Position numbers and translations under genes: made by a program
Assembly: GCA_964647565.1 (NCBI GenBank)
Contig: CAZYIM010000039.1
Coordinates: 1 to 22,634, forward strand
Length of the DNA: 22,634 nucleotides
Direction: 5' to 3'
Source of the DNA: an uncultured Methanosarcinales archaeon
GTDB lineage: Archaea; Nanobdellota; Nanobdellia; Woesearchaeales; CAZYIM01
Part shown: one piece after another, positions 96 to 15,664 of the stretch
Position numbering within the stretch: the stretch's first letter is position 1
Layout of the letters: each line of letters opens with the position of its first letter
The notes under the pieces: generated by a model
Seen by the model: only the letters and a program-made list of their open reading frames with translations
Told to the model about the DNA's origin: nothing
Databases searched by the model: none

Positions 96-1262
96 TCAGC
101 TTTCCAAATCAGGTTTATTTTTATCGATATCAAGACAGGCGCCATCCCGGCAACCTTGTGGACAGTCATGATCTGTAAAACCAAGAGTCCTTTTATCATC
201 GTTGCAGAAGACTTCTCTTAGTCCACAATCAGGACCTTCACATGGTTCGTCTGTATACGGTAGTTGCCAGGGCTGGTGGGTTTGAGTGTTCTGACAATAA
301 TCAGTATAAGGAGGTGGTGCTAAAAAATCCAAGAATGTAGTAACAGTACCTGCTTCATACGGGTTGTCGCCATTATCTGTATCGTCGCAATAGGGAAACT
401 TCGCCGAGCATGCACCCTCATAACAATAAGGCTTCCCACCAGAACATGTAAAGTCCTTAAGACGAGGCATTCCAATCTCGTCACAATAAGCTTCCCTCAA
501 TATATGGGCATCTAAAAAATCACAACTATCAGGCGCACCATGACCACTCCACATGCCGCCTAATTCAAATTGATTGAATGCTTCACCAGGAATATCCGGA
601 TAAAGACCTCCATCTGTGTCGTTACATAGCATAGGTTCGATTGGTAGAACCTCAAAGCTTTCTGAAACCTTATTGTTTGATTTATCTTCTTCCTCTATAT
701 AAGGGAAGATAACTGCAGTTATCTCATAAGTTCCAGGTTCTAAAAAAATAACTGAGAAAACTTCCCAGCCGTCATTCTGGTAAGACGGTACGGGCGGGAA
801 AGTCTTCACTCCCCATGCCACCCCATCAATATAAACAGTAACATTAAAATCATCGATAGATACAGTACCTTGCAACGACTCAACAAATGTGTTTATAGAA
901 ATTGACTCTTCTCCATCTTCATTATAAAAGTGTGAGCCCTCAATCTTTAAATCAACGATTGCAAGATCAGGAATTATTTTTTTATCATCATCTTTTTTAT
1001 CATCCCATTGTTTAAAATATTCATCACAAATCTTTCGAAATTGTGCGGGTGGCTCAATGTTTTTATTCCAAAAAAACTTGCAAATCTTTTCATTAGAGTC
1101 AGGATCTAGATGATTAGATCTAGCAGCTTCTCCACCCAGATTAAAATCTGAACTCGTATTTGATATAATTACAATTATAGCTGTAAGTGCCACAATCATC
1201 ACTATACCTAATAAATAATAATGCGTCTTGTTTTTGTCAGAATAATTTTTTTTCTTAGCCAT
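96..1262 (-). CDS. Membrane-anchored or secreted surface protein with a CARDB-like Ig domain and two Cys-rich CxDTDxG repeats
   Basis: Basic N-terminus and one hydrophobic helix (YYLLGIVMIVALTAIIVII). CARDB-like segment PDLAIVDLKI...FNVTVYIDG...PGTYEITAVI...EEEDKSNN. Repeats CNDTDGG...DSC...LREAYC...CYEGAC and CDDTDNG...DYC...LREVFC...CRDGAC. SD GAGGTG lies 5 nt before the ATG. Confidence 0.75.
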   Translation of the reverse strand: MAKKKNYSDKNKTHYYLLGIVMIVALTAIIVIISNTSSDFNLGGEAARSNHLDPDSNEKICKFFWNKNIEPPAQFRKICDEYFKQWDDKKDDDKKIIPDLAIVDLKIEGSHFYNEDGEESISINTFVESLQGTVSIDDFNVTVYIDGVAWGVKTFPPVPSYQNDGWEVFSVIFLEPGTYEITAVIFPYIEEEDKSNNKVSESFEVLPIEPMLCNDTDGGLYPDIPGEAFNQFELGGMWSGHGAPDSCDFLDAHILREAYCDEIGMPRLKDFTCSGGKPYCYEGACSAKFPYCDDTDNGDNPYEAGTVTTFLDFLAPPPYTDYCQNTQTHQPWQLPYTDEPCEGPDCGLREVFCNDDKRTLGFTDHDCPQGCRDGACLDIDKNKPDLES

Positions 1263-1304
1263 GATAACACCTCAAAATATAATTGTTAACTTCCCAAAAA
1301 GAAG

Positions 1305-1319
1305 TTTATAAATGTTTCG
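1305..1319 (-). promoter_or_regulatory. BRE-TATA promoter for the 96..1262 gene
   Basis: Minus strand reads CGAAACA-TTTATAAA about 43 nt upstream of the ATG. The same AAACATTTATAAA string recurs at 10755-10767. Confidence 0.6.
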
Positions 1320-1369
1320 TTCAAATAAAAAGTGTTAAAGGGGTTAATAATCCGCGTTTAGCTGACTTT

Positions 1370-3253
1370 TCATTGTGTTCGTTCAACCATGAAATCAGCA
1401 AAGCCATTAAAGAAATCATACTCGTCTTTTGATAGGTTGGCCTTCAGGAGATGTTTCTTGGCTTCATCAATCTTATTGTTTGCTAGTTTATCAACATAAT
1501 TAATCGCACCAGAGGATTCCAATAGGTCGATTGCTTCATCAATCTCTTTATCAGTTGCATCACTCCTGCCAAGCACGTTGAGCAGTTTTTGCTTATCAGG
1601 CTCTTTAAGCCTTTCTAAGGCCCTAATGATTATTAGGGTCTTCTTGCCTTGTCTGATATCCGAGCCCTTCTGACGGCCTTTTTTGGCCTTAGAGCACAAA
1701 TCCATAAGATCGTCTTTCAACTGGAAAGCAAGTGCTGCATTCATTGAATATTGGTCTAAGCTCGTTAATTGTTGTTCAGAAGCACCTCCAAGAATCCCGC
1801 CTATCCTTATTGAAGTAGCAATCAGAGCAGAAGTCTTTTTCATTGCCATATCAATATAATACTGCTCATCTTCAGAAGATTTGAATTCGAGAAGGGTATC
1901 CATCAATTCCCCTTGGTTAACAACAGCATAGCACTTATGATACTCTAAAGCAGCCCTGTTAATAAGATTTTTATCTAATTTAGAATTTATCAAACAATCT
2001 GCACCATACGAATATAATATATTTCCAAGAACAATAGCATTGGATACACCAAATCTGGTTGACAGCTTAGAGAAAACAGGTCCGGAATATGTTCTATCTT
2101 TAAAAGAAGACAAGAACTCTTTTTTCTGCTGCTGGAAAATCGTATCTCGTCCTCGTCTCTTCTCATCTTCATCTATAATATCGTCATGGATCAGGCTGGA
2201 GTTATGAAGGAACTCAACAGATAACGCTTCCCTGATTATCTGGCCTTTACCACCAACACCCATATAGGCCATTATTAAAGAAATGGGTCTTAACTTTTTA
2301 CCACCATCCTGGCCAAAACTCTTCAATAGATTAAGATAAGGCTCAAAATCAGGGCTCTGAAGCATCTTTTCCCTAAATAAGTACTCTATTTCCTTATTGA
2401 GCACCCTTTGATAGCTCAACAATGTTCGAGTGAAACCAGATTGCTTGTCAGTCAATTTAGCCAATACTCTTTCAATGGTTTTTTCAGGCGTGGAAGCTCC
2501 TGCTGTTATGCCAACAATCTTGCCCATGAACCATTCATCTTTAAGCTGATCTGCTTTTTCAATCCACCGGGTCTCAACAATAGCTTCACAAAGCTCATAC
2601 AAGCGTTTTGTGTTTCCGCTTGTCTTGTCACCTATGACTATCATAAGATCGACAGTTTTAGCCAACTCCTGTGCGGCATTCTGCCTTTCAATAGTTGAGT
2701 TACAAATGGTATCATAAACATTCAATTCATTTACCTTTTTTCTAAGGATCTTCTTGATGATATCATAGTCTTCCAGAGACTGTGTAGTTTGTGAGACCAA
2801 CACAGCTTTTTCCATCTCTGGTAAGTCATCAGCATCTGTTTCACTTTTAATGATAATTGGATTTTCACATCTGCTGGCAATAGCCTTGATCTCTATATGT
2901 TCCTTATCACCAAAGATGATAACAGGATATTCCTGCTTGTCAAACTTTTTTACAATATCGTGAATCTTCTTAACAAACGGACAGGTTGTATCAACAACAT
3001 TCAATCCCTTTTTTTCTGCCGCTTTTATAGTAGAAAGAATATTTCCATGAGCATTGATGACCAATGTCCCCCTCTCAATCTCAGATATGCTTCTGACTGG
3101 GCTGATATCCTGTTCTTTAAGCTCATCAACCACTTCCTTATTATGGACAACATGACCTAATGTTTTAGCGCCCTTCTTACCTTTTGCAATATCCACTGCC
3201 CGCTTGACTCCAAAGCAAAATCCGTGGTTTTTAGCAACTTGCAGTTCTTTTAT
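1370..3253 (-). CDS. ispH: Fusion of IspH/LytB (HMBPP reductase) and trans-polyprenyl diphosphate synthase; start extended to ATA at 3253 (627 aa)
   Basis: IspH motifs: GFCFGVKRA (upstream of the track's GTG at 3196), VHN, AHG, DTTCPFV, EHIE, SQTT, DTICN, SGNT, GITAGASTP. Prenyltransferase motifs: GGKKLRP, LIHDDIID..RRG, GELMD, KT, FQLKDDLMD. One open frame across the junction near 2430-2455. Confidence 0.9.
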   Translation of the reverse strand: MKELQVAKNHGFCFGVKRAVDIAKGKKGAKTLGHVVHNKEVVDELKEQDISPVRSISEIERGTLVINAHGNILSTIKAAEKKGLNVVDTTCPFVKKIHDIVKKFDKQEYPVIIFGDKEHIEIKAIASRCENPIIIKSETDADDLPEMEKAVLVSQTTQSLEDYDIIKKILRKKVNELNVYDTICNSTIERQNAAQELAKTVDLMIVIGDKTSGNTKRLYELCEAIVETRWIEKADQLKDEWFMGKIVGITAGASTPEKTIERVLAKLTDKQSGFTRTLLSYQRVLNKEIEYLFREKMLQSPDFEPYLNLLKSFGQDGGKKLRPISLIMAYMGVGGKGQIIREALSVEFLHNSSLIHDDIIDEDEKRRGRDTIFQQQKKEFLSSFKDRTYSGPVFSKLSTRFGVSNAIVLGNILYSYGADCLINSKLDKNLINRAALEYHKCYAVVNQGELMDTLLEFKSSEDEQYYIDMAMKKTSALIATSIRIGGILGGASEQQLTSLDQYSMNAALAFQLKDDLMDLCSKAKKGRQKGSDIRQGKKTLIIIRALERLKEPDKQKLLNVLGRSDATDKEIDEAIDLLESSGAINYVDKLANNKIDEAKKHLLKANLSKDEYDFFNGFADFMVERTQ

Positions 3254-3891
3254 TTTATATCACCCGGATATGTAATCTTTATATTGGATCTTTCACCAGA
3301 TATCATCTTCACCTTAACACCCAGCACCTCTACTAAAGAGGAATCATCATCTGCTTTTATTTTTTTCTTCTTGGCCATTTTATGCGCTAGTCGGATAAGA
3401 TCAGCATCAAAGATCTGTGGCGTCTGGGCAATAAACACCTTGCGCCTGTCGATAGTCTTCATTGTTTTAGAGACGTGCTTGACTGTCTCTTCCACAGGCA
3501 AGGCCACAATCAATGCCTGTTTGCATTCGACAATGGATTTAGAGATTAGTTTTTGGCTTACAAAAGGCCTGTCAGCATCGTGAATAAGGATTTTATCAGC
3601 ATTTTTTACAGCATCAACACCTAAGGCGCTGGATTGCTGCCTGGACCTGCCTCCATACACAATCTTGGCTAGTTTGCTATATTTTCCACTGCATAAGGTT
3701 TTAATGCGGCGTAAGCTTTTTTTGGATGTTACCAGGATTATTTCATGAACATCAGGATTCGTTTCAAACTTATGAAGAACAATCTCAAGAACAGTCTTCC
3801 CAGCAAACTCTGCAAAAAGTTTATTCTTACCAAAACGCTTAGATTCTCCTGCTGCCAGAATTACGGCACAAATAATTTTTTTCTTGCTCAT
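3250..3891 (-). CDS. ispD: 2-C-methyl-D-erythritol 4-phosphate cytidylyltransferase (IspD/TarI family)
   Basis: VILAAGESKRF..NKLF, GGRSRQQSS, ILIHDADRPF, AQTPQIF, DDSSLVE, NIKITYPGD. It is adjacent to and coupled with ispH. Confidence 0.85.
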   Translation of the reverse strand: MSKKKIICAVILAAGESKRFGKNKLFAEFAGKTVLEIVLHKFETNPDVHEIILVTSKKSLRRIKTLCSGKYSKLAKIVYGGRSRQQSSALGVDAVKNADKILIHDADRPFVSQKLISKSIVECKQALIVALPVEETVKHVSKTMKTIDRRKVFIAQTPQIFDADLIRLAHKMAKKKKIKADDDSSLVEVLGVKVKMISGERSNIKITYPGDIK

Positions 3892-4457
3892 AGAATTCCC
3901 AGCTCTTTCTCCCCGAAAACCTCAGCCTGGAACTTGAAAATCTCAACATCTTCATCCCGCCAGGCATTAAATGACAATCCCGCCTTCTGGCAAAGGCAAT
4001 TTAGGAATTGCATAGGGGTAAAACTGTTTTCAGTAGCAACTTGAGGAAGAAGCAGCCCGCTCCTACCCTCTTTATCTTTAATAATAAGGCCATCCTTACC
4101 AATATTTATCCTCCTGGAATATTCCTCTGATTTGGCCACTACCAGCTTTTGAGGCGCACTAAGAACAGATATCTCAAAATCAATAAGTCTCAACTCGTCC
4201 TTGGTAACAGCCATAAACCTTGTATCATTGAATGCTGCAGATTTGGCAGCTTCTATAATAGCCTGAAAAAGAGGCATAATAGGATAAGGAAATCCAACAC
4301 AACCCCTAAGATGGCCGTGCTTGTGAAGCGTGACAAACACTCCTTGCTTATCCTTAAAGTGAGTAACATCACTAATATTGGGACCCTTATTCTCAAAATG
4401 TGTGGCAATAGCCTCCCTGGCTAACTTAAGAAGCAATATCTTATCTTCCTCATCCAT
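3888..4457 (-). CDS. AMMECR1-domain protein; probable start at ATG 4457 (MDEEDKILLL), not 4547
   Basis: LLKLAREAI, GVFVTL, LRGCVGFP, AAFNDTRF, FEISVLS, GKDGLII, SGLLLPQVA, LCQKAGL, FQAEVF. A TATA box lies 23 nt upstream of 4457. ATGA overlap with ispD. Confidence 0.9.
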   Translation of the reverse strand: MDEEDKILLLKLAREAIATHFENKGPNISDVTHFKDKQGVFVTLHKHGHLRGCVGFPYPIMPLFQAIIEAAKSAAFNDTRFMAVTKDELRLIDFEISVLSAPQKLVVAKSEEYSRRINIGKDGLIIKDKEGRSGLLLPQVATENSFTPMQFLNCLCQKAGLSFNAWRDEDVEIFKFQAEVFGEKELGIL

Positions 4458-4479
4458 AAATTCCGGGCAGAAAGAAGTA

Positions 4480-4494
4480 TATTTAAAGCTTTTC
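4480..4494 (-). promoter_or_regulatory. BRE-TATA promoter for the AMMECR1-ispD-ispH operon, likely leaderless
   Basis: Minus strand reads GAAAAGC-TTTAAATA, with the TATA box about 23 nt from ATG 4457. Confidence 0.6.
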
Positions 4495-4556
4495 ATTTGA
4501 TTCCAAACCAATAAATTTTTATACATGCTACTTGAAATGTTGTTCAAGGTGATATC

Positions 4557-4724
4557 ATGCAGCTGACAAAAGATGAAAAAATAATGATTAAGTTTCTTCT
4601 AGAAAAGCACATCAAGAAGTTCAAGAATGACGAGCATATAGTCTTATGGGAAGGCCCAAGATTACTGGCTGCAGAAGTAAAGAATGAAGAATTCCTTAAA
4701 AACCTGTTAAAGAAGTTCAAATAG
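4557..4724 (+). CDS. Small hypothetical protein, 55 aa, not in the ORF track
   Basis: MQLTKDEKIMIKFLLEKHIKKFKNDEHIVLWEGPRLLAAEVKNEEFLKNLLKKFK*. SD GGTGAT at 4548-4553 and TATA-like TTTATACA at about 4518-4525. It fills an otherwise empty gap. Confidence 0.7.
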   Translation: MQLTKDEKIMIKFLLEKHIKKFKNDEHIVLWEGPRLLAAEVKNEEFLKNLLKKFK

Positions 4725-7755: not shown

Positions 7756-10281
7756 ATGTTTGGATTTCTAAAAAAGAAGCTACAAGACGCGGTCTCAAAG
7801 TTTTCTAAAAATGTTGAAGATGAGGTTGAAGTAGAAGAGGTTACCAAGAAGGTAGACGAGACAAAAGCAGAGAAAAAGAAGGAAGAAAAGAAAAAGGATA
7901 AGCCTAAGAAAGAAGAAAAAAAGAAAGAGGAGAAACCTAAGCTTAAAAAAGAACCTGAAGAAAAAAAGGAAGAGAAACAAGAGAAACCTGAAAAAGAGCC
8001 AGAAGAAAAAAAATCATTCTTATCCAAGATCTTTGGCAAGAAAGAAGAAGACGCAGAAGAAGAAATACCAATTCCAAAAGAGAAGAAAAAAGAAGTAAAG
8101 CCTAAGGCCAAAAAAGAGGAAAAACCCAAGACACCTGAGCCAAAAGTTGAGAAAGCCGAAGAAAAGAAAGTTGAAGCTAAGAAAGAAGAGAAAAAAGAAC
8201 CTGAGAAGGTAAAAGAAGCAGTCAAGGAAGAACCTGAACCTGAAAAAAAAGAAAAGAAAAAAGAGACCGATGCTAAGAAGGAAGAAAAGAAAACAGAAGA
8301 AAAGGAGCCTGAACCTGTAAAAGAAGAAGCTGAAGAAAAGAAAGAGCCTCTAAAAGAAGAAAAAGAAGAGATCGAAGAAGTAGAGGAAGAGCCTGAGATT
8401 GAACCTGAAGAGGAACCCAAGCCAGAAGTTAAAGAAGAAATAGTGGAGCCAGAAGAATCAGAAGAAAAAATTAAAGGCGTCAAAATAACTTATTTTGTTC
8501 ACGGAACCACAACTGATAATGAAGAAGGCCTAGCCACGGGCCATGAACATGGAGAACTTTCTGAACTAGGCATAACACAAGCAAAAGAGCTTGCTAATCA
8601 AGTCGATGTTGAAAAGTTCGATGTCATGTTCACATCTGACCTGAAACGAGCTACTGATTCTGCAGATTTTGGATTCAAAGATAAACTCAAGATAATCAAA
8701 GACAAGCGACTTCGCGAAGTTGATTATGGAGAATTTACACTTAAGCCTTGCAAGGAATTCAAGCCGAATATGGCTGATTATGTTGACGAAAGATTCCCCT
8801 CTGGTGAAAGCTATAGGGATGTAGAAAAAAGAATTGCAGAATTTCTAAACGATATCTTGAAAAAATACCAGGGCAAGCATATCGCAATAATGGCACATCA
8901 CGCTCCACAACTCGCTATCGAGGTTTTGGTGGAAGGCAAAACCTGGGAACAAGCTATTGCAGATGATTGGCGACCTAAAAATGCATGGCAGCCAGGATGG
9001 GACTATTCAATGGAGGCAGAGGTAGACGTGCCTGAGATAGAGGATACTGCAGCAGAAGCTGCTGAAGTTCAGGAAGAGGCTCCTGAACAACAAGAAAAAA
9101 AATCATTCTTATCAAAGATATTCCACAGGAAAAAAGAGGAAGAAGTAATCGAAGAAAAAGAAGAGGTTGAGGAAGAGAAAGAGGCTGAGCCTGAACCAGA
9201 AGTCCCAGAGGAACTTGAAGAGATCAAGGAAGACATAAAAGACGTTGAAAAAGAAAAAGAAGTGATTGAAGAGGAAGAAAAGGTAGAAGAACCCAAAAAA
9301 GAGAAAAAAGAAGAGGTTGAAGAAGAGCCTGAAATTTCTGAAGAACCGATAAAAGAAGAAGAACCTGAAGAGGAACCTGCGGAAGAAGCTAAGCCCAAGA
9401 AAAAGGGATTATTTTCATTTGTCACCGAGCGAGTCACTAAGTTTAATATTTCTGAAGAGAAGTTTGAGGAGATGTTCTGGGATCTTGAAGTTGCATTACT
9501 GGAAAATAATGTTGCCGTTGAGGTCATAGAAAAGATCAAGGAAGATATGAAAGAAGAGCTGACCAGGGAAAAGATCTCAAGAAAGAAGGTCATGGAGGTC
9601 ATAATCAATAGGCTTGACCAATCTATTAAAGAACTCTTTGATGTTGACCAGATAGACCTGATGAAAGAGATCAAGAAGAAAAAGCCTTTTGTCATCTCTT
9701 TTATTGGAGTCAATGGATCTGGCAAGACCACATCTATGGCCAAGGTAGCCAAGAATCTTATGAATCAGGGTCTATCAGTCGTGTTTGCAGCAGCAGATAC
9801 GTTTAGGGCGGCTGCAATCGAACAATTGCAGGAACATGCGGACAAGCTTGGTGTAAAAATGATCCGTCATGACTACAAATCAGATCCTGCCGCAGTTGCT
9901 TTTGATGCAGTTGAGCATGCAAAAGCCAAGAACATAGATGTTGTCCTGGTTGACACTGCTGGAAGGCTTCATTCAAATGATAATCTGATGAATGAGCTCA
10001 AAAAACTTGTCAGGGTAAATAACCCTGATCTAAAGGTTTTTGTTGGGGAAAGTACTACTGGTAATGATTGTGTAGAACAAGCCAGATTATTTGATCAGGC
10101 TGTTGGTATAGATGCAGTAATACTCGCAAAAGTGGATGTTGATGATAAAGGCGGAGCTGCTATTTCTATTTCTTTTGTGACAAAGAAACCGATCATCTTT
10201 ATTGGTACTGGTCAGAATTATGAGGATCTTGAGCCTTTTGATCCACAGATTGTTCTGAAATCACTTGGCCTTGAAGCCTAG
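7756..10281 (+). CDS. ftsY: SRP receptor FtsY with long K/E-rich linkers and an internal histidine-phosphatase domain (841 aa)
   Basis: C-terminal NG GTPase: GVNGSGKTTS, DTFRAAAIEQL, DPAAVAFDA, DTAGR, AKVD..KGG, GTGQ.YEDL. Internal domain: YFVHGTT.DN, LSELGITQA, TSDLKRA, RLREVDYG, GES, AHH. Confidence 0.92.
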   Translation: MFGFLKKKLQDAVSKFSKNVEDEVEVEEVTKKVDETKAEKKKEEKKKDKPKKEEKKKEEKPKLKKEPEEKKEEKQEKPEKEPEEKKSFLSKIFGKKEEDAEEEIPIPKEKKKEVKPKAKKEEKPKTPEPKVEKAEEKKVEAKKEEKKEPEKVKEAVKEEPEPEKKEKKKETDAKKEEKKTEEKEPEPVKEEAEEKKEPLKEEKEEIEEVEEEPEIEPEEEPKPEVKEEIVEPEESEEKIKGVKITYFVHGTTTDNEEGLATGHEHGELSELGITQAKELANQVDVEKFDVMFTSDLKRATDSADFGFKDKLKIIKDKRLREVDYGEFTLKPCKEFKPNMADYVDERFPSGESYRDVEKRIAEFLNDILKKYQGKHIAIMAHHAPQLAIEVLVEGKTWEQAIADDWRPKNAWQPGWDYSMEAEVDVPEIEDTAAEAAEVQEEAPEQQEKKSFLSKIFHRKKEEEVIEEKEEVEEEKEAEPEPEVPEELEEIKEDIKDVEKEKEVIEEEEKVEEPKKEKKEEVEEEPEISEEPIKEEEPEEEPAEEAKPKKKGLFSFVTERVTKFNISEEKFEEMFWDLEVALLENNVAVEVIEKIKEDMKEELTREKISRKKVMEVIINRLDQSIKELFDVDQIDLMKEIKKKKPFVISFIGVNGSGKTTSMAKVAKNLMNQGLSVVFAAADTFRAAAIEQLQEHADKLGVKMIRHDYKSDPAAVAFDAVEHAKAKNIDVVLVDTAGRLHSNDNLMNELKKLVRVNNPDLKVFVGESTTGNDCVEQARLFDQAVGIDAVILAKVDVDDKGGAAISISFVTKKPIIFIGTGQNYEDLEPFDPQIVLKSLGLEA
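8003..8033 (+). repeat. Direct repeat copy 1 inside ftsY (encodes EKKSFLSKIF)
   Basis: AAGAAAAAAAATCATTCTTATCcAAGATcTT matches 9092-9122 at 29/31 nt, 1089 nt apart and in frame. Confidence 0.85.
8479..9012 (+). other. Histidine phosphatase (phosphoglycerate-mutase-like) domain within FtsY
   Basis: About 178 aa of globular sequence, VKITYFVHG...WQPGWDYSM, carrying the family motifs and embedded between two low-complexity linkers. Confidence 0.85.
9092..9122 (+). repeat. Direct repeat copy 2 inside ftsY (encodes EKKSFLSKIF)
   Basis: AAGAAAAAAAATCATTCTTATCaAAGATaTT. A second shared 17-mer, GAACCTGAAGAGGAACC, occurs at 8401-8417 and 9361-9377. Confidence 0.85.
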
Positions 10282-12060: not shown

Positions 12061-12151
12061 AACTAACCACCTCACTGATTTACTCACTTAAGTTACAAAA
12101 AATATTTAAATTAGTATGATGCGATATATTAATGACGAAAAAAGGGGTATA

Positions 12152-15100
12152 ATGAAAAAACTATTTATCAGTCTAGTTATGATTATCTTATTAGCTAATT
12201 TTTCACACGCAAGCCCTGTCATTTCTCACATCACAGAAGGCATCACAGGATCAATAATCAAACTGGATGTCGAGGATCTTGGCCAGGGCAGGGAAGTCAT
12301 AGTCGGAACATCCACTGGAGTTTTCATCTTTGATGGTAAAGGAGTGCTGATCAATCACTTCCCCACCACCTATCCGATTACAGATCTATTATATGTTAAT
12401 GACTTGACTGGGGATGGTGATAGGGATATTGTTGTTTCAACCACAGACCAGGACTTTCCTAATGTTCAGATGTATAATAGTCGAACAGGAGAGCTCATCT
12501 GGACTTTCAAGCCAACAATACCAGCATATGACCTTGACTTGATGTGGATAGACAAAGAGACCAAGACCTGGGATCTTGAAATACTTCCTGACATTAACAG
12601 CGACAATCTTGATGAGATATTGGTGGCTTCAGGAAATAAGGTTTATCTGCTCGATGGTAAGACAGGCGTAGCAAAATGGGCATTCAATGCCACAAATGAT
12701 GTGTGGAACGTAAAAAGTATTGGAGATAAGATACTGGTAGGCTCGCAAGATGGAATATTATATGCATTAGATGTTCAAGGTTCTTTGATGTGGCAAATAG
12801 AGCTGATAGCTCCTTTTGAGGTAATAGACCTCTCAACCAATAACCCTGTTGGTAATGTAAAACGATCTGTCTGGGACATAATATTGACTCAAGAACAGAT
12901 AATCACTGTAAGCGGGGAGAACGGATATATCTATCAAGTAAACATTGACAATGGAAACATCATTCAAGAAAAACAGATAATAGAATTTGATGATAATCTA
13001 TTGTATGCCTACTATGGAACTGATAAGAATCGCTTATTGCCTTCGGGACCAAACACAGATAACTTCTTTAACTTAAGATTAAAGAAGATTCCCGATCTTA
13101 ACCAGGATGGTATTGATGAAATAATTGCAACCACATTTATGGGTACATCATCCTCACGAAACCAAGACCAGAAAGGCGGATACAGCTTAAAGAACAAAAT
13201 TATCCATTTGCTCGATGGAGACTCTGTTGAAGAGATATGGCACACCAAAGAGATAGATATAACAAAAACAAAACAGTTCAGCACATATATTGACAATGAC
13301 AAGAAGATTGTTATACCTGAAGGTAAGAGAGGTAAGACAGAATTGATCAAGACAGTCAATCTTGAAAAAGAGATTGTTAATATCAATTTCAATACCACAG
13401 CAGTATCAGGTGGATCAGGGAATTTCTATTTTATTGAAAACTATGATGATTATCATCTTATTATGGCTTCTGACCAAGGCGATCTGACCCTCATAGATAC
13501 AACAGGCAAGATACAATGGGTATATCCAAGATATCAGGAACTAGAGATCAATAGTGTAGACCTCAACTCTGATGGAACAGAAGACATTTTTGTGCGTTCT
13601 GTTGAAAGAAAAGAGCGAGAAAAAAAGACAGAAGAGGGCAGCACACGAATGATGTATATGCTTGATGGAACCAGCAACAATATGCTTTGGCTATATAAGA
13701 TGGGTTTTAACGAATATTACCTGACTGGCGGATTGAATAATATCAGGATAATAGATGATGTCAACAATGATAATTATAGGGACATAATGGCATATGTACA
13801 AAGAAAAGGTGATTGGGATCGTGGAGATTCTAAAGGCCTATATACAAGAATAATAGTTTTTGATGGAAAGTCAGGAAATGAGATCTGGAAGAAACCAGTT
13901 GTTGAGAACACATATTATGGCGTTTATGATATCCTATATAGGAACATATCACTGATCCCGACCATGTTTGATTATGATGAAGATACAATAACACAACTTG
14001 AAATTGAGCGAGAGTTTGCCCAGAGAAAACTTCAGAATCCTGACACTTTGGATTATGACAAATGGCAAAGATATCTAGAGGAAAGAGAGCAAGCGATAGA
14101 ACGTCAATATAGGATGAGGGATCAGATAGACCAGTTAATGGGAGAATTACCTCAAAGGAAAGAAGAATTCAAGGTAAATAGGAGGATCATATCAATTGAG
14201 GAAATAGAGGACCAGAATTCTGATGGTGTAAAGGATTTGATAGTGAGCTGCTGGTACGATGTCTATGTCATAAGCAGCAAGGATGGAAAATTATTATGGT
14301 TAAAAACACGGGATGCATATAAGCATAAGGATCCTTTTGCCTCAGGAGAAGGCAACAAATCCCTTGAATGGAGTTTCTTAAAAGATGCAGACAGGTCAAA
14401 AATAAAGGTAGTTGAAGATATCAACGAAGATGGAATCCAGGATCTTCTTGTCTTCACGCATCGCAGAATCCTTTTGGCACAGAGCGGGATCAATTATACC
14501 CTTAAATGGATGTGGAAACCAAGTTCTGGAGACTATGACCAAGAAAACCTGATGATGATTGAAGATGTTAACGGTGATGGTATCAAGGATATATTTATCG
14601 ATGTTTGGAGTGAGGATGGCCCATCAACATACAAGATCCTAAACAGCAGGAATGGCAAAGAAATCATGCAGATAAACAGGGATGGCACTATGATGGATTG
14701 GAATGTAGCTGACCTTGACGGCGATAATCATAAAGATTCTTTGATATTTAGAAAATGGAGTGATTCTGGACCAATATTAGAGGTAAAAAGCGGCGATACT
14801 GGCCAAACTATATACACCTATGATGGTATTGATGAGACATATATGCTTGAAAGCAGGCATAAATTTGCACATATCATGCCCGCAGGACCAATAGATGATT
14901 TCAACGAGGATGGAGTAGATGATCTGGTCATCATAAAAAGCAGGTTGTGGCAAAAAGGCATAGAGATAATAATAATTGATGTCAAGAACAATGAACAATT
15001 GCAAAAAATAGAATATGATGTTGCTGAAACTGAAAATGAAGACTATAAAAGATACCAGCCAGCAGTATGGGTCAACACTATCAATGATCTTTCTGGCGAT

Positions 15101-15664
15101 GGTAGAAAAGAGATTGCTATTGTTGGAGTTTTTACAATTGAAAATGAACAAGAAGAAGCAAAAGTTATAATTTTTGATCTTAATAAGAAGAGAGTGCTTA
15201 GGGAATTCAAGGTTAAGGCTGACAAGGTTTTTAGTGTTGGTAACAACAAGAACATCTATATAACAACTGTAAATGGTGATGTCTACCTGATTGACAGCAG
15301 CTGGTCCAATCCAATTCTTGAACCCTTGAATGATGCAGTTGTTCAGGATGAATTTGAATTGAAATGGAACCAGGAAAAAAACACTCTTAATACCATATTC
15401 TTCAATAACCAAAAGGTCAAGGAAGTTGATGGTGATAGTCATGTCTTGAATATTAAGGGCGGCAAACACGAGATAGCCCTACAGACCAAGGATAGGCTTG
15501 GAAACACAGTATTTGACTATATTGAGATAAAGGTGAAAAGAAGTACTGTCGCAACCACCTTGATTAACATAATCATTCTCTTCGCTATTATTGCATTCAT
15601 AATATATAATATAAATAAGCATAGAAAAAGAAAGGGTCTAAGTCCAATATGGAAGAAGAAATAA
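12152..15664 (+). CDS. Large extracellular FG-GAP/PQQ-like beta-propeller protein with signal peptide, Ig-like domain and C-terminal membrane anchor; probable start ATG 12152
   Basis: Signal peptide MKKLFISLVMIILLANFSHA after AGGGGT. About 11 DxNxDGxxD-type motifs and repeated DGKTG..W motifs. C-terminal hydrophobic helix followed by KHRKRK. Confidence 0.85.
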   Translation: MKKLFISLVMIILLANFSHASPVISHITEGITGSIIKLDVEDLGQGREVIVGTSTGVFIFDGKGVLINHFPTTYPITDLLYVNDLTGDGDRDIVVSTTDQDFPNVQMYNSRTGELIWTFKPTIPAYDLDLMWIDKETKTWDLEILPDINSDNLDEILVASGNKVYLLDGKTGVAKWAFNATNDVWNVKSIGDKILVGSQDGILYALDVQGSLMWQIELIAPFEVIDLSTNNPVGNVKRSVWDIILTQEQIITVSGENGYIYQVNIDNGNIIQEKQIIEFDDNLLYAYYGTDKNRLLPSGPNTDNFFNLRLKKIPDLNQDGIDEIIATTFMGTSSSRNQDQKGGYSLKNKIIHLLDGDSVEEIWHTKEIDITKTKQFSTYIDNDKKIVIPEGKRGKTELIKTVNLEKEIVNINFNTTAVSGGSGNFYFIENYDDYHLIMASDQGDLTLIDTTGKIQWVYPRYQELEINSVDLNSDGTEDIFVRSVERKEREKKTEEGSTRMMYMLDGTSNNMLWLYKMGFNEYYLTGGLNNIRIIDDVNNDNYRDIMAYVQRKGDWDRGDSKGLYTRIIVFDGKSGNEIWKKPVVENTYYGVYDILYRNISLIPTMFDYDEDTITQLEIEREFAQRKLQNPDTLDYDKWQRYLEEREQAIERQYRMRDQIDQLMGELPQRKEEFKVNRRIISIEEIEDQNSDGVKDLIVSCWYDVYVISSKDGKLLWLKTRDAYKHKDPFASGEGNKSLEWSFLKDADRSKIKVVEDINEDGIQDLLVFTHRRILLAQSGINYTLKWMWKPSSGDYDQENLMMIEDVNGDGIKDIFIDVWSEDGPSTYKILNSRNGKEIMQINRDGTMMDWNVADLDGDNHKDSLIFRKWSDSGPILEVKSGDTGQTIYTYDGIDETYMLESRHKFAHIMPAGPIDDFNEDGVDDLVIIKSRLWQKGIEIIIIDVKNNEQLQKIEYDVAETENEDYKRYQPAVWVNTINDLSGDGRKEIAIVGVFTIENEQEEAKVIIFDLNKKRVLREFKVKADKVFSVGNNKNIYITTVNGDVYLIDSSWSNPILEPLNDAVVQDEFELKWNQEKNTLNTIFFNNQKVKEVDGDSHVLNIKGGKHEIALQTKDRLGNTVFDYIEIKVKRSTVATTLINIIILFAIIAFIIYNINKHRKRKGLSPIWKKK

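Follow-up and report, generated by a model that had tools for sequence, protein, structure and literature searches.

A rare fusion of IspH and trans-isoprenyl diphosphate synthase domains in a Woesearchaeales-type archaeon

Does a single archaeal gene encode both an enzyme of the type that makes the two C5 isoprenoid units and an enzyme of the type that consumes them, and what would its product be used for? This question is raised by the window, a stretch of 22,634 nucleotides from a contig (C39) of a marine DPANN-type archaeon (genome G000). Its genes include archaeal core genes identified by Pfam (L21e, Rpb4/RpoF, eIF-6, prefoldin, and FtsY), placing the fused gene on an archaeal contig. The answer that we consider probable, taken as a whole, is that the gene encodes a retained bifunctional fusion of IspH and a trans-isoprenyl diphosphate synthase (IDS), that this fusion arose in place, that its translation would start at an ATA codon, and that its product would be drawn into polyprenyl carriers. 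The features of the locus are as follows:

1370..2425, minus strand: trans-isoprenyl diphosphate synthase domain and stop codon (PF00348, with FARM and SARM; relatives are archaeal GGPP synthases)
2426..2437, minus strand: linker of about 4-6 residues (...TDKQSG...) from the IspH end to the first IDS helix, placed by an alignment of four fused proteins, the hmmsearch envelopes, and the sequence
2438..3253, minus strand: IspH/LytB domain of the HMBPP reductase type (PF02401, TIGR00216; best solved relative 3DNF, 180 bits)
3196..3198, minus strand: GTG of the public gene call, with the 608-residue product P0002; this start would delete the first cluster Cys
3251..3253, minus strand: ATA, proposed non-canonical start, overlapping the ispD stop TAA (3252-3250) as ATAA
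3250..3891, minus strand: ispD of the MEP cytidylyltransferase type, 213 residues, standalone and unfused to ispF (PF01128, 167.8 bits)
3888..4547, minus strand: AMMECR1-family gene of the AmmeMemoRadiSam protein A type (PF01871, 175.8 bits; TIGR04335, 185.9 bits, cut-off 99)

The minus-strand frame 1370-3259 is open from stop to stop (629 codons). Its single translation holds a complete IspH/LytB and a complete trans-prenyl diphosphate synthase according to Pfam, as originally predicted, with hmmsearch envelopes at residues 1-272 and 279-629, respectively. The domain junction, at about 2413-2440, is in-frame and reads through, with no stop or frameshift near 2430-2455. Logan contigs from four public runs showed 0 other letters and 0 gaps over 1300-4600, at a depth of only about 2-5 and with the source sample of the window possibly among the runs. 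Single contigs spanned the domain junction (1855-2766) and the ispD/ispH boundary (3053-4600). No RNA run was listed among the public runs holding the locus. A chimeric or mis-binned contig was also considered: C39 and the two other contigs carrying MEP genes (C13 and C54) have a GC content of 0.36-0.38 and tetranucleotide correlations with the bin of 0.975-0.991 (median 0.983), values that give no foreign sign, although they cannot prove a single organism.

The IspH domain was matched by LYTB (PF02401) over residues 5-266 (E 2.7e-82, 276.5 bits, cut-off 24.5; profile positions 3-266 of 267) and by TIGR00216 with 253.8 bits against a cut-off of 187.85. The codons of the cluster Cys lie at 3217-3215, 2983-2981, and 2704-2702, corresponding to C12, C90, and C183 of P0001, which are invariant in the alignment and matched to the Cys of 3DNF (Aquifex) and of E. 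coli IspH. Conserved relative to the same two proteins are the His, His, His, Glu, Thr-Thr, Ser, Asn, and Ser positions, and 12 of 12 catalytic or cluster positions are kept. In E. coli IspH numbering, His41, His74, His124, Glu126, Thr167, Ser225, Asn227, and Ser269 are what we take to be the diphosphate-binding and proton-relay residues. Judged by its sequence, the N-terminal domain is a putative HMBPP reductase. The alignment agrees with the complete IspH that had been claimed, with its three Fe-S Cys, His, Glu, and Thr-Thr, and the first Cys needs a start upstream of GTG 3196.

The C-terminal domain was matched by polyprenyl_synt (PF00348) over residues 309-576 (E 2.3e-48, 165.1 bits, cut-off 27). 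Both motifs of the predicted complete trans-prenyltransferase are present, FARM as DDIID at 2171-2185 and SARM as DDLMD at 1700-1714, with invariant Asp columns (D356/D357/D360 and D513/D514/D517, respectively). Among solved structures, it is closest to the archaeal GGPP synthases 5JFQ (Geoglobus, 146.7 bits) and 1WY0 (Pyrococcus, 142 bits), with which it has FARM, SARM, and the helical regions of the overall fold in common. The fusion IDS differs from them in an insert of about 25 residues just after FARM, around which the alignment runs in two pieces, in GN for GD in the next helix, and in a Ser at position -5 before FARM, where 5JFQ has Phe and 1WY0 has Tyr. Meanwhile, it fails every NCBIfam equivalog cut-off, the best being IdsA_Meth (NF040698, 203 bits against 468), with GGPP_syn (NF041003) at 162 bits against 500. 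Under the chain-length rule of archaeal GGPP synthases, the product could exceed C20. With both active sites intact, one polypeptide could take HMBPP to a prenyl diphosphate. Docking predictions between the IspH and IDS alignments, run without controls, gave scores of 0.04, 0.38, and 0.00, values that speak neither for nor against contact between the domains, and the channelling suggested in the original prediction gains no support from the present data.

The genes upstream follow the order originally described, behind an AMMECR1 gene and ispD. The true start of the AMMECR1 gene is likely the ATG at 4457, where its tblastx match with L088, the locus of the closest fused homologue, begins. The sequence ATGA joins its stop (TGA, 3890-3888) and the ispD start (ATG, 3891-3889) in an overlap. 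A grouping of IspD with TarI-type enzymes was checked: the protein passes TIGR00453 narrowly (190.0 bits against 181.3) and falls below the cut-off of the ribitol-5-P cytidylyltransferase model NF001183 (88.6 bits against 166). In L088, the gene between AMMECR1 and the fusion was considered as a degenerate IspD and rejected, having no similarity and no Pfam match.

Where does translation of the fused gene begin? If only ATG, GTG, or TTG starts are allowed, the reading frame starts at GTG 3196 and encodes 608 residues, downstream of the first cluster Cys; the public protein P0002 (97% query coverage) derives from the window itself. There is no canonical start in the sequence between the upstream stop (TGA 3262-3260) and the first Cys, a circumstance overlooked in the original prediction. 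Upstream of GTG 3196, 19 codons can be aligned with the N-termini of homologues, including G-F-C-F-G-V-K-R-A, and the initial Met of the homologues lies within one residue of the ATA at 3253-3251. This ATA is the only plausible start, and translation most likely begins there, through coupling to ispD termination at the ATAA overlap. If the ATA is unused, the IspH domain would be left without one cluster ligand. With the ATA as start, the public gene call would be an annotation error that sets a wrong start and loses a catalytic Cys.

Two other accounts of this region have to be weighed against coupled initiation at ATA. The gene may be decaying, its ATG mutated to ATA and its translation now beginning at GTG 3196, so that an IDS with an inactive IspH would be made and the upstream codons would be a relic. 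The missing canonical start, the public call on the GTG, and the patchy MEP set of the genome fit this account, and so does G059 (family f60, that of the closest fused genome), which keeps an IDS and has no IspH match. However, the 19 upstream codons are stop-free and match homologues residue for residue, all functional positions of IspH are intact, the same ATA occurs in contigs of several runs, and ATAA parallels the ATGA overlap at the preceding gene, an arrangement that serves coupled re-initiation; we therefore regard decay as quite unlikely. Less probable still is that a -1 ribosomal slip on A_AAA just before the ispD stop (GAT ATA AAA TAA) yields one trifunctional IspD-IspH-IDS protein. 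Such a slip would land exactly in the IspH frame (…AAA ATA AAA GAA…), which is open from 3259, the Lys-tRNA would re-pair perfectly one base back with a stop codon in the A site, and multi-enzyme MEP fusions such as IspDF and IspE-IspH are common in the clade. Yet the canonical X_XXY_YYZ heptamer is absent, the RNA downstream of the ispD stop has a z-score of +1.02, with 167 of 200 shuffles folding at least as well, and an IspD-IspH fusion occurs in no homologue among the proteins and loci examined.

Although real, the fusion is rare. Eight distinct fused proteins, 27-48% identical, align end to end: that of the window, L088 (genome G167), L174 (P0122, genome G039), L089, P0003, P0004 (genome G064), P0005, and P0142. 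The closest to the window is that of G167, at 49% identity. A survey of the architecture found it to be uncommon, with 4 carriers among 201 sampled genomes of the order and 5 clusters among 1.84 billion representatives. Eight diverged fused proteins, together with run contigs that bridge the junction, indicate that it is neither a one-off nor an assembly error.

In relatives of the fused loci, ispH and ids are unfused neighbours, often with overlapping ends. The two are separate genes in L095, L100, L102, and L149, they overlap by 11 nt in L008 and by 4 nt in L011, and in L091 they share a frame with a single stop between them. That ispH and ids lie unfused side by side in many relatives had escaped the original prediction. 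Since relatives hold the two genes in this arrangement, the fusion arose in place, at least twice. In the separate trees built for each domain, both without P0142, the fused rows cluster: on the IDS tree (quick method), 2 changes suffice to explain the 7 fused rows, a number that none of 500 shuffles matched or undercut, and on the IspH tree (FastTree only), 7 of 7 fall within one archaeal clade of 25 tips with support 96. We propose that the ancestors would have been two neighbouring, translationally coupled genes, ispH then ids, at the end of a MEP cluster of the Woesearchaeales-type DPANN.

Other fusions of IspH, to UbiA and RPS1, have been published as 'Rosetta stone' fusions (Rao et al. 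2015, Chem Sci, PMC4746011), as the original prediction had noted, and many of them were among our database matches. They likewise consist of a complete N-terminal IspH and a C-terminal partner; UbiA, too, is a consumer of prenyl diphosphates, which places both domains of IspH-UbiA in isoprenoid metabolism. Their hosts are anaerobic bacteria, whereas those of the present fusion are DPANN archaea, and its partner is a soluble trans-IDS (PF00348) that would use both IspH products directly, with no S1 repeats and no UbiA domain. The words 'polyprenyl' and 'diphosphate synthase' are absent from the main text of PMC4746011, and outside subscription journals and the supplement of that paper, we found no report of a fusion between IspH and a prenyl synthase. 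In the same clade, IspE-IspH fusions (P0009, P0010, P0035, P0038; L011, L102), from MAGs of Nanoarchaeota/Woesearchaeota, carry the same IspH subfamily within the 25-tip clade and are followed by the same type of IDS as a separate gene; there, IspH forms the C-terminal part, and its partner is a kinase that acts at an earlier, non-adjacent step of the pathway.

MEP genes in Woesearchaeota, also mentioned in the original prediction, are reported by Castelle et al. 2021 (PMC8204110) and Huang et al. 2021 (PMC8421398). The clusters described there come from the same lineage and hold the same bacterial-type genes, with ispH adjoining an IDS of the GGPPS type. IspDF fusions are common in them, whereas ispD is unfused to ispF here, and the MEP genes of our genome are spread across three contigs, with no dxs, dxr, or ispF detected. 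In Table S4 of PMC8204110, 10 of 10 polyprenyl_synt entries stand on rows without LYTB, and the 30 IspH rows inspected, out of 57 LYTB occurrences, each cover no more than about 1 kb, so that these are separate genes. Hence IspH fusions and Woesearchaeota MEP genes were already published, and a trans-IDS partner is without a report that we could find.

The gene content of G000 (86.9% complete, 86 contigs) bears on what the fusion might do. In tblastn searches, neither domain of the fused gene had a second copy in the genome. The other MEP genes detected are ispD (C39), ispE (C54; 154.8 bits against 138.7), and ispG (C13; 476.5 bits), and the set from dxs to ispH is incomplete. For dxs, only a split transketolase-like pair was found (221.8 bits against 465.95); dxr and ispF gave no profile match, nor any tblastn match with the Dxr and IspDF of relatives. 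The mevalonate pathway was tested through HMG-CoA reductase (HMGR) and mevalonate kinase: PF00368 had no match, and a GHMP kinase on C16 was rejected as mevalonate kinase (TIGR00549, 77.5 bits against 163), lying in a heptose/sugar-nucleotide cluster with NTP-transferase, SIS, HAD, and epimerase genes. Without dxs, dxr, and ispF, the genes detected do not account for a supply of HMBPP, which speaks against the reading that we prefer. The original prediction tied scavenging to the absence of dxs, dxr, ispE, ispF, and ispG, and in this incomplete genome that absence holds for dxs, dxr, and ispF only, ispE and ispG being present.

Meanwhile, GGGPS was found in 0 of 5 genomes, IDI-2 scored over its cut-off in 0 of 5, and UbiA was not found in G000, G167, or G039. 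The cis-prenyltransferase UppS was found in 5 of 5, and it lies beside the fusion or IDS in G167, G039, G064, and G059. The absence of GGGPS and UbiA is in line with PMC8421398, where GGGPS and DGGGPS are reported absent in Woesearchaeota. We propose that the N-terminal [4Fe-4S] HMBPP reductase would make IPP and DMAPP, which the C-terminal trans-IDS would condense into a longer allylic diphosphate. An IPP-rich IspH output of about 5:1, given in PMC13001223, would suit chain elongation without an isomerase. Because no GGGPS, UbiA-type transferase, or IDI-2 was found while UppS was, the product would most likely prime the synthesis of polyprenyl (dolichol-like) phosphate carriers and supply their building blocks, and not be used for self-made ether lipids.

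A different reading of the same inventory is that the fusion, or IspH together with an IDS, is a salvage module that, instead of finishing an endogenous MEP pathway, would let the archaeon make prenyl diphosphates of its own from late MEP intermediates taken from bacterial partners. What is taken could be HMBPP, or possibly MEcPP where IspG is present, as in G000. That profile searches detected no dxs, dxr, ispF, or HMGR in G000 speaks for it, as does G167, which is 97% complete and has the fusion with no dxs, dxr, ispD, ispE, ispF, or ispG found. Of the 201 genomes in the order sample, 56 contain a match to the IspH domain; 21 of these 56 have no IspG over the cut-off, 20 of the 21 also have no DXR, and HMGR was found in none of the 20. 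The active site is nevertheless retained: 12 of 12 catalytic or cluster positions are intact in 19 of the 20, the exception being a single Thr-to-Ser change in G167. Of 20 fetched loci, 5 have an IDS within 4 kb of ispH, and 6 of 20 have UppS within 2.8 kb. On the other side, no diphosphate transporter or uptake route was identified, ispD and ispE would be useless in G000 without ispF and a MEP source, which the incomplete assembly explains better, and the fusion also occurs in genomes with a full (G064) or nearly full (G039) MEP cluster. In G141, one of the 20, ispD, ispF, and ispE adjoin ispH, so that its missing IspG and DXR may reflect a gap or ongoing decay; for 18 of the 20 genomes, ispD, ispE, and ispF were outside the genome-wide search, and the order-wide mevalonate marker was HMGR only, leaving out isopentenyl phosphate kinase and type-1 IDI. 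We hold salvage by the fusion to be possible but doubtful. The broader proposal that many Woesearchaeales-type DPANN keep IspH, alone, fused, or beside an IDS, as a device for salvaging HMBPP or MEcPP from bacterial hosts for carrier lipids, in cells with neither the first MEP steps nor a mevalonate pathway, is a shade less likely again. Were salvage true, the fusion would be the most streamlined two-step module, and G167, in which it is the only MEP gene, would be the clearest case.

The retained bifunctional fusion, our preferred reading, would join the maker of both C5 units to their consumer and yield longer prenyl diphosphates from HMBPP without an isomerase, a natural design of interest to enzymologists and pathway engineers. 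Its relatives form a traceable series, from neighbouring genes to overlapping genes, to one frame with a single stop, to the fused gene. These DPANN archaea are not known to synthesize membrane lipids themselves. The fusion and many standalone IspH genes of the order keep a perfect active site in genomes where IspG, DXR, and HMG-CoA reductase were not found, which puts the source of isoprenoid precursors in question. If uptake of a bacterial MEP intermediate is true, it would represent a new kind of metabolic dependence and hint at bacterial hosts.

The window is the entire contig C39 (22,634 bases) of genome G000, and three minus-strand genes stand in a head-to-tail row in it.

3888-4547, minus strand, AMMECR1 (Pfam, 175.8 bits)
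3250-3891, minus strand, ispD (TIGR00453, 190.0 bits against a cut-off of 181.3)
3' end at 1370, minus strand, fused frame with a LytB/IspH domain (276.5 bits) and a polyprenyl synthase domain (165.1 bits), both full

The coordinates and gene identities of the original prediction are correct, and its observation of a single IspH::prenyl synthase frame, in which both domains are full, is confirmed. A Pfam search of the window identified opposite-strand neighbours encoding ribosomal protein L21e, RpoF/Rpb4, eIF-6, PRPP synthetase, prefoldin and FtsY, a gene content which indicates that the contig is archaeal. The FtsY/SRP-receptor homologue (7756-10281, plus strand, 841 aa, SRP54 GTPase domain at residues 644-836) carries a His_Phos_1 histidine-phosphatase domain (94.1 bits, residues 249-385) within a long Lys/Glu-rich N-terminal region, an architecture that is unusual for FtsY. 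Two further products look like surface proteins: a 388-aa protein encoded directly downstream of the fusion (96-1262, minus strand), which is rich in cysteines, has a membrane anchor at its N-terminus and matches no Pfam family, and a 1182-aa PQQ/FG-GAP beta-propeller protein (12116-15664, plus strand).

The IspH half of the fusion aligned over its full length with IspH of Aquifex (3DNF, 180 bits) and of E. coli, and the alignment showed that the three cluster cysteines and the active-site His, His, His, Glu, Thr-Thr, Ser, Asn and Ser are all kept. The linker is only a few residues long, and the C-terminus of IspH almost directly joins the first helix of the synthase. The closest solved relatives of the synthase half were the archaeal GGPP synthases 5JFQ and 1WY0, and both Asp-rich motifs are present. 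Unlike these enzymes, it has an insert of about 25 residues after the first motif and GN instead of GD in the next helix; at position -5 before the first motif, Ser takes the place of the Phe or Tyr seen in the solved GGPP synthases. It also fell below every NCBIfam equivalog cut-off. Because of these differences and missed cut-offs, we name it a trans-prenyl diphosphate synthase (IDS), without a product-length class. Judged from its sequence, a bifunctional role of the fusion, uniting IspH and prenyl synthase chemistry, is plausible.

When ATG, GTG and TTG starts are considered, the open reading frame begins at GTG 3196 and encodes 608 aa, as in the public gene call P0002. From this start, the protein would lack 19 conserved residues at its N-terminus, the first Fe-S cysteine (codon 3217-3215) among them. 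The fused frame is open upstream to 3259, and the codons there read …IKELQVAKNHGFCFGVKRAV…, a residue-for-residue match to the N-termini of homologues. ATA 3253-3251 is the sole start-like codon that is suitably placed, and it overlaps the ispD stop as ATAA; one gene upstream, the AMMECR1/ispD boundary is a classical ATGA overlap. We infer that the fused gene is translated from ATA, probably through coupled re-initiation after ispD terminates. One G-to-A substitution would convert ATGA into ATAA with the ispD stop preserved. A -1 slip on A_AAA_TAA at the end of ispD would also lead into the IspH frame, but the RNA downstream is unstructured (z +1.02) and none of the homologues found has IspD fused to IspH, both of which count against such a slip. 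Logan contigs from four public marine/seawater runs displayed no differences across the ispD/ispH boundary and the domain junction, although depth was low and the runs and the assembly are possibly not independent. Another public protein, P0005 (first residues MGFCYGV…), has an N-terminus that looks clipped like that of P0002.

The fusion proved rare. Both Pfam domains were present in 4 of the 120 proteins listed by a word-indexed search of 5.8 billion proteins, which gave 1039 proteins at E <= 0.001 among 7999 scored candidates. When 1.84 billion cluster representatives were searched exhaustively with HMMER, 5 of the best 150 of 33,888 matches were full-length fusions; the fifth of these, P0142, had both domains confirmed by Pfam. 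Contig scans and genome searches added L088 (genome G167), L089 and L174 (protein P0122 of genome G039), bringing the fused proteins to at least 8 distinct, colinear sequences with pairwise identities of 27-48%. In an even sample of 201 genomes of the order (including the unpublished G131 and G120, used in tallies only), four had the fused form (G000, G167, G064 and G039), the comparison genomes all lying outside the window's own family and genus. Named relatives were MAGs labelled Woesearchaeota or Nanoarchaeota.

Fusions of IspH to RPS1, UbiA and a few single partners have been published (PMC4746011); neither "polyprenyl" nor "diphosphate synthase" occurs in the main text of that paper. Within Table S4 of PMC8204110, 10 of 10 polyprenyl_synt rows stand apart from the LYTB rows, in contrast to the fused frame of the window, and none of the 30 IspH rows examined spans much more than 1 kb. 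IspDF fusions and partial pathways are treated in a 2026 review on the diversity of isoprenoid pathways (PMC13001223), whose passages on them do not mention an IspH-prenyl synthase fusion, and our full-text literature search found no description of one. Two other fusions also turned up, namely PlsC-type acyltransferase-IspH (P0114, 490 aa) and cytidylate kinase-IspH (P0226, 509 aa). Fusions of IspE to IspH (about 540-555 aa) recur in Nanoarchaeota/Woesearchaeota MAGs (P0009, P0010, P0035, P0038; L011 6058-7692; L102 91-1755) and are followed by a separate IDS gene. IspE-IspH fusions are also suggested for G148, G009, G023, G186 and G095, where ispH lies within open frames of 544-554 aa.

In many relatives, ispH is directly followed by a separate synthase gene of the same kind.

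Arrangement of ispH and the synthase gene (ids) in relatives
L008: separate ispH and ids, 11-nt overlap
L011: separate genes, 4-nt overlap; ispH itself fused to ispE
L091: ispH and ids in one frame, one stop between them
L095, L100, L102, L149: ispH and ids separate, in different frames

In G064, the entire cluster dxs-ispG-dxr-ispDF-ispE-ispH::ids lies on one contig. A quick IDS tree of 34 rows required only two changes for its seven fused rows, and a single origin is compatible with its starred branches. The IspH tree (FastTree, 178 rows) placed the seven fused rows in one archaeal clade of 25 tips, mixed with unfused genes, and required three changes. P0142, in neither tree, has a synthase of the other type, which shares Phe at -5 with L195-L197, and must be an independent fusion. 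Taken together, the adjacent or overlapping unfused genes, the tree placements and P0142 lead us to regard the fusion as a repeated local loss of the stop codon or frame between coupled genes; the separate synthase of G059 may be a reversal or loss. Two genes from MAGs with bacterial labels, the IDS of L009 (Deltaproteobacteria bacterium) and the IspH of L061 (candidate division FCPU426 bacterium), fall inside Woesearchaeales-type clades, which could reflect mis-binning or gene transfer.

MEP genes in a Woesearchaeota clade, their clustering and a nearby UbiA gene have been described, as have the IspDF fusion and the absence of GGGPS and DGGGPS in Woesearchaeota (PMC8204110, PMC8421398). The genome G000 (2.68 Mb, 86 contigs, rated 86.9% complete and 1.85% contaminated) encodes ispD in the window, ispE on C54 (154.8 bits against 138.7), ispG on C13 (476.5-476.9 bits) and the fusion, its only detectable IspH and only detectable trans-synthase. 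Both contigs carry archaeal genes (TFS, NMD3 and an archaeal helicase on C13; an archaeal CCA enzyme on C54), and their composition fits the bin. In this 86.9%-complete assembly, dxr and ispF were not found, also by tblastn with relatives' proteins, nor were HMG-CoA reductase, GGGP synthase, UbiA-family transferases or type-2 IDI; the profile search for dxs gave only a split transketolase-like pair. The best match to mevalonate kinase was a sugar kinase within a nucleotide-sugar cluster. Scavenging of MEP intermediates had been proposed should dxs, dxr, ispE, ispF and ispG be absent; of these genes, dxs, dxr and ispF were not found in the assembly, and ispE and ispG were. The only ispG gene of G000 (L169 9242-10288) sits in a row of some nine radical SAM/SPASM genes plus a B12-radical SAM gene (L169 7121-18949), a setting absent from the MEP clusters of relatives.

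A cis-prenyltransferase homologue was detected on C25 (91.4 bits). UppS adjoins the fusion or synthase in G167, G039, G064 and G059, and in 6 of 20 further loci no more than 2.8 kb separates it from ispH. From gene content, a polyprenyl carrier lipid is the likely sink of the fusion's product. About 1.7 kb downstream of ispE on C54 is a DUF368/VCA0040-like "undecaprenyl phosphate translocase-like" gene (L168 8622-9473, 260.7 bits); upstream, this locus has a MoxR/VWA pair and an integrase of phage type.

The closest fused homologue belongs to G167, a genome that, at 97% completeness, lacks all six remaining MEP genes. IspH without IspG and DXR was also found across the order sample.

Isoprenoid genes in the order sample
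IspH-domain match: 56 of 201 genomes
IspG over the cut-off: 37 of 201 genomes
DXR over the cut-off: 30 of 201 genomes
HMGR: 12 of 201 genomes
IspH-positive genomes without IspG: 21
Of these, also without DXR: 20 of the 21
HMGR among these: 0 of 20

This set of 20 is defined by genome-wide searches for IspG and DXR; in one member, G141, ispH has ispD, ispF and ispE as neighbours, and several genomes of the set are less than 90% complete. We compared the IspH active sites of 19 members of this set, of its twentieth member G167 (L088) and of G161. Each of the 19 kept 12 of 12 functional positions; IspH of G161 has Phe for His at one position, and that of G167 has Ser for Thr at one. These orphan ispH genes occupy scattered positions in the IspH tree and often have UppS, IDS or AMMECR1 nearby (L192, L194, L195, L197 and L202, among loci L192-L211). 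Three loci that otherwise differ (the window, G167 at L088 4723-5301 and G139 at L202 1397-1984) have AMMECR1 at most about 1.5 kb from ispH, a proximity that may reflect conserved synteny or a functional connection. In G010 (C15:3755-3979), a 155-aa frame beside ispH and ids matches only the first 75 of 343 IspG positions (88.5 bits); it looks like an ispG remnant, suggesting, when compared with G141, stepwise decay of the MEP cluster in family f11.

Despite incomplete genomes, intact IspH without its substrate-making steps is a recurring feature of the order sample. That HMBPP or MEcPP is salvaged from bacteria is a hypothesis worth keeping in view, although we consider it rather unlikely. 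Neat as it is, the fusion alone is an unsurprising Rosetta-stone case; the point worth pursuing is the missing upstream pathway, in G000 and in many of its relatives.
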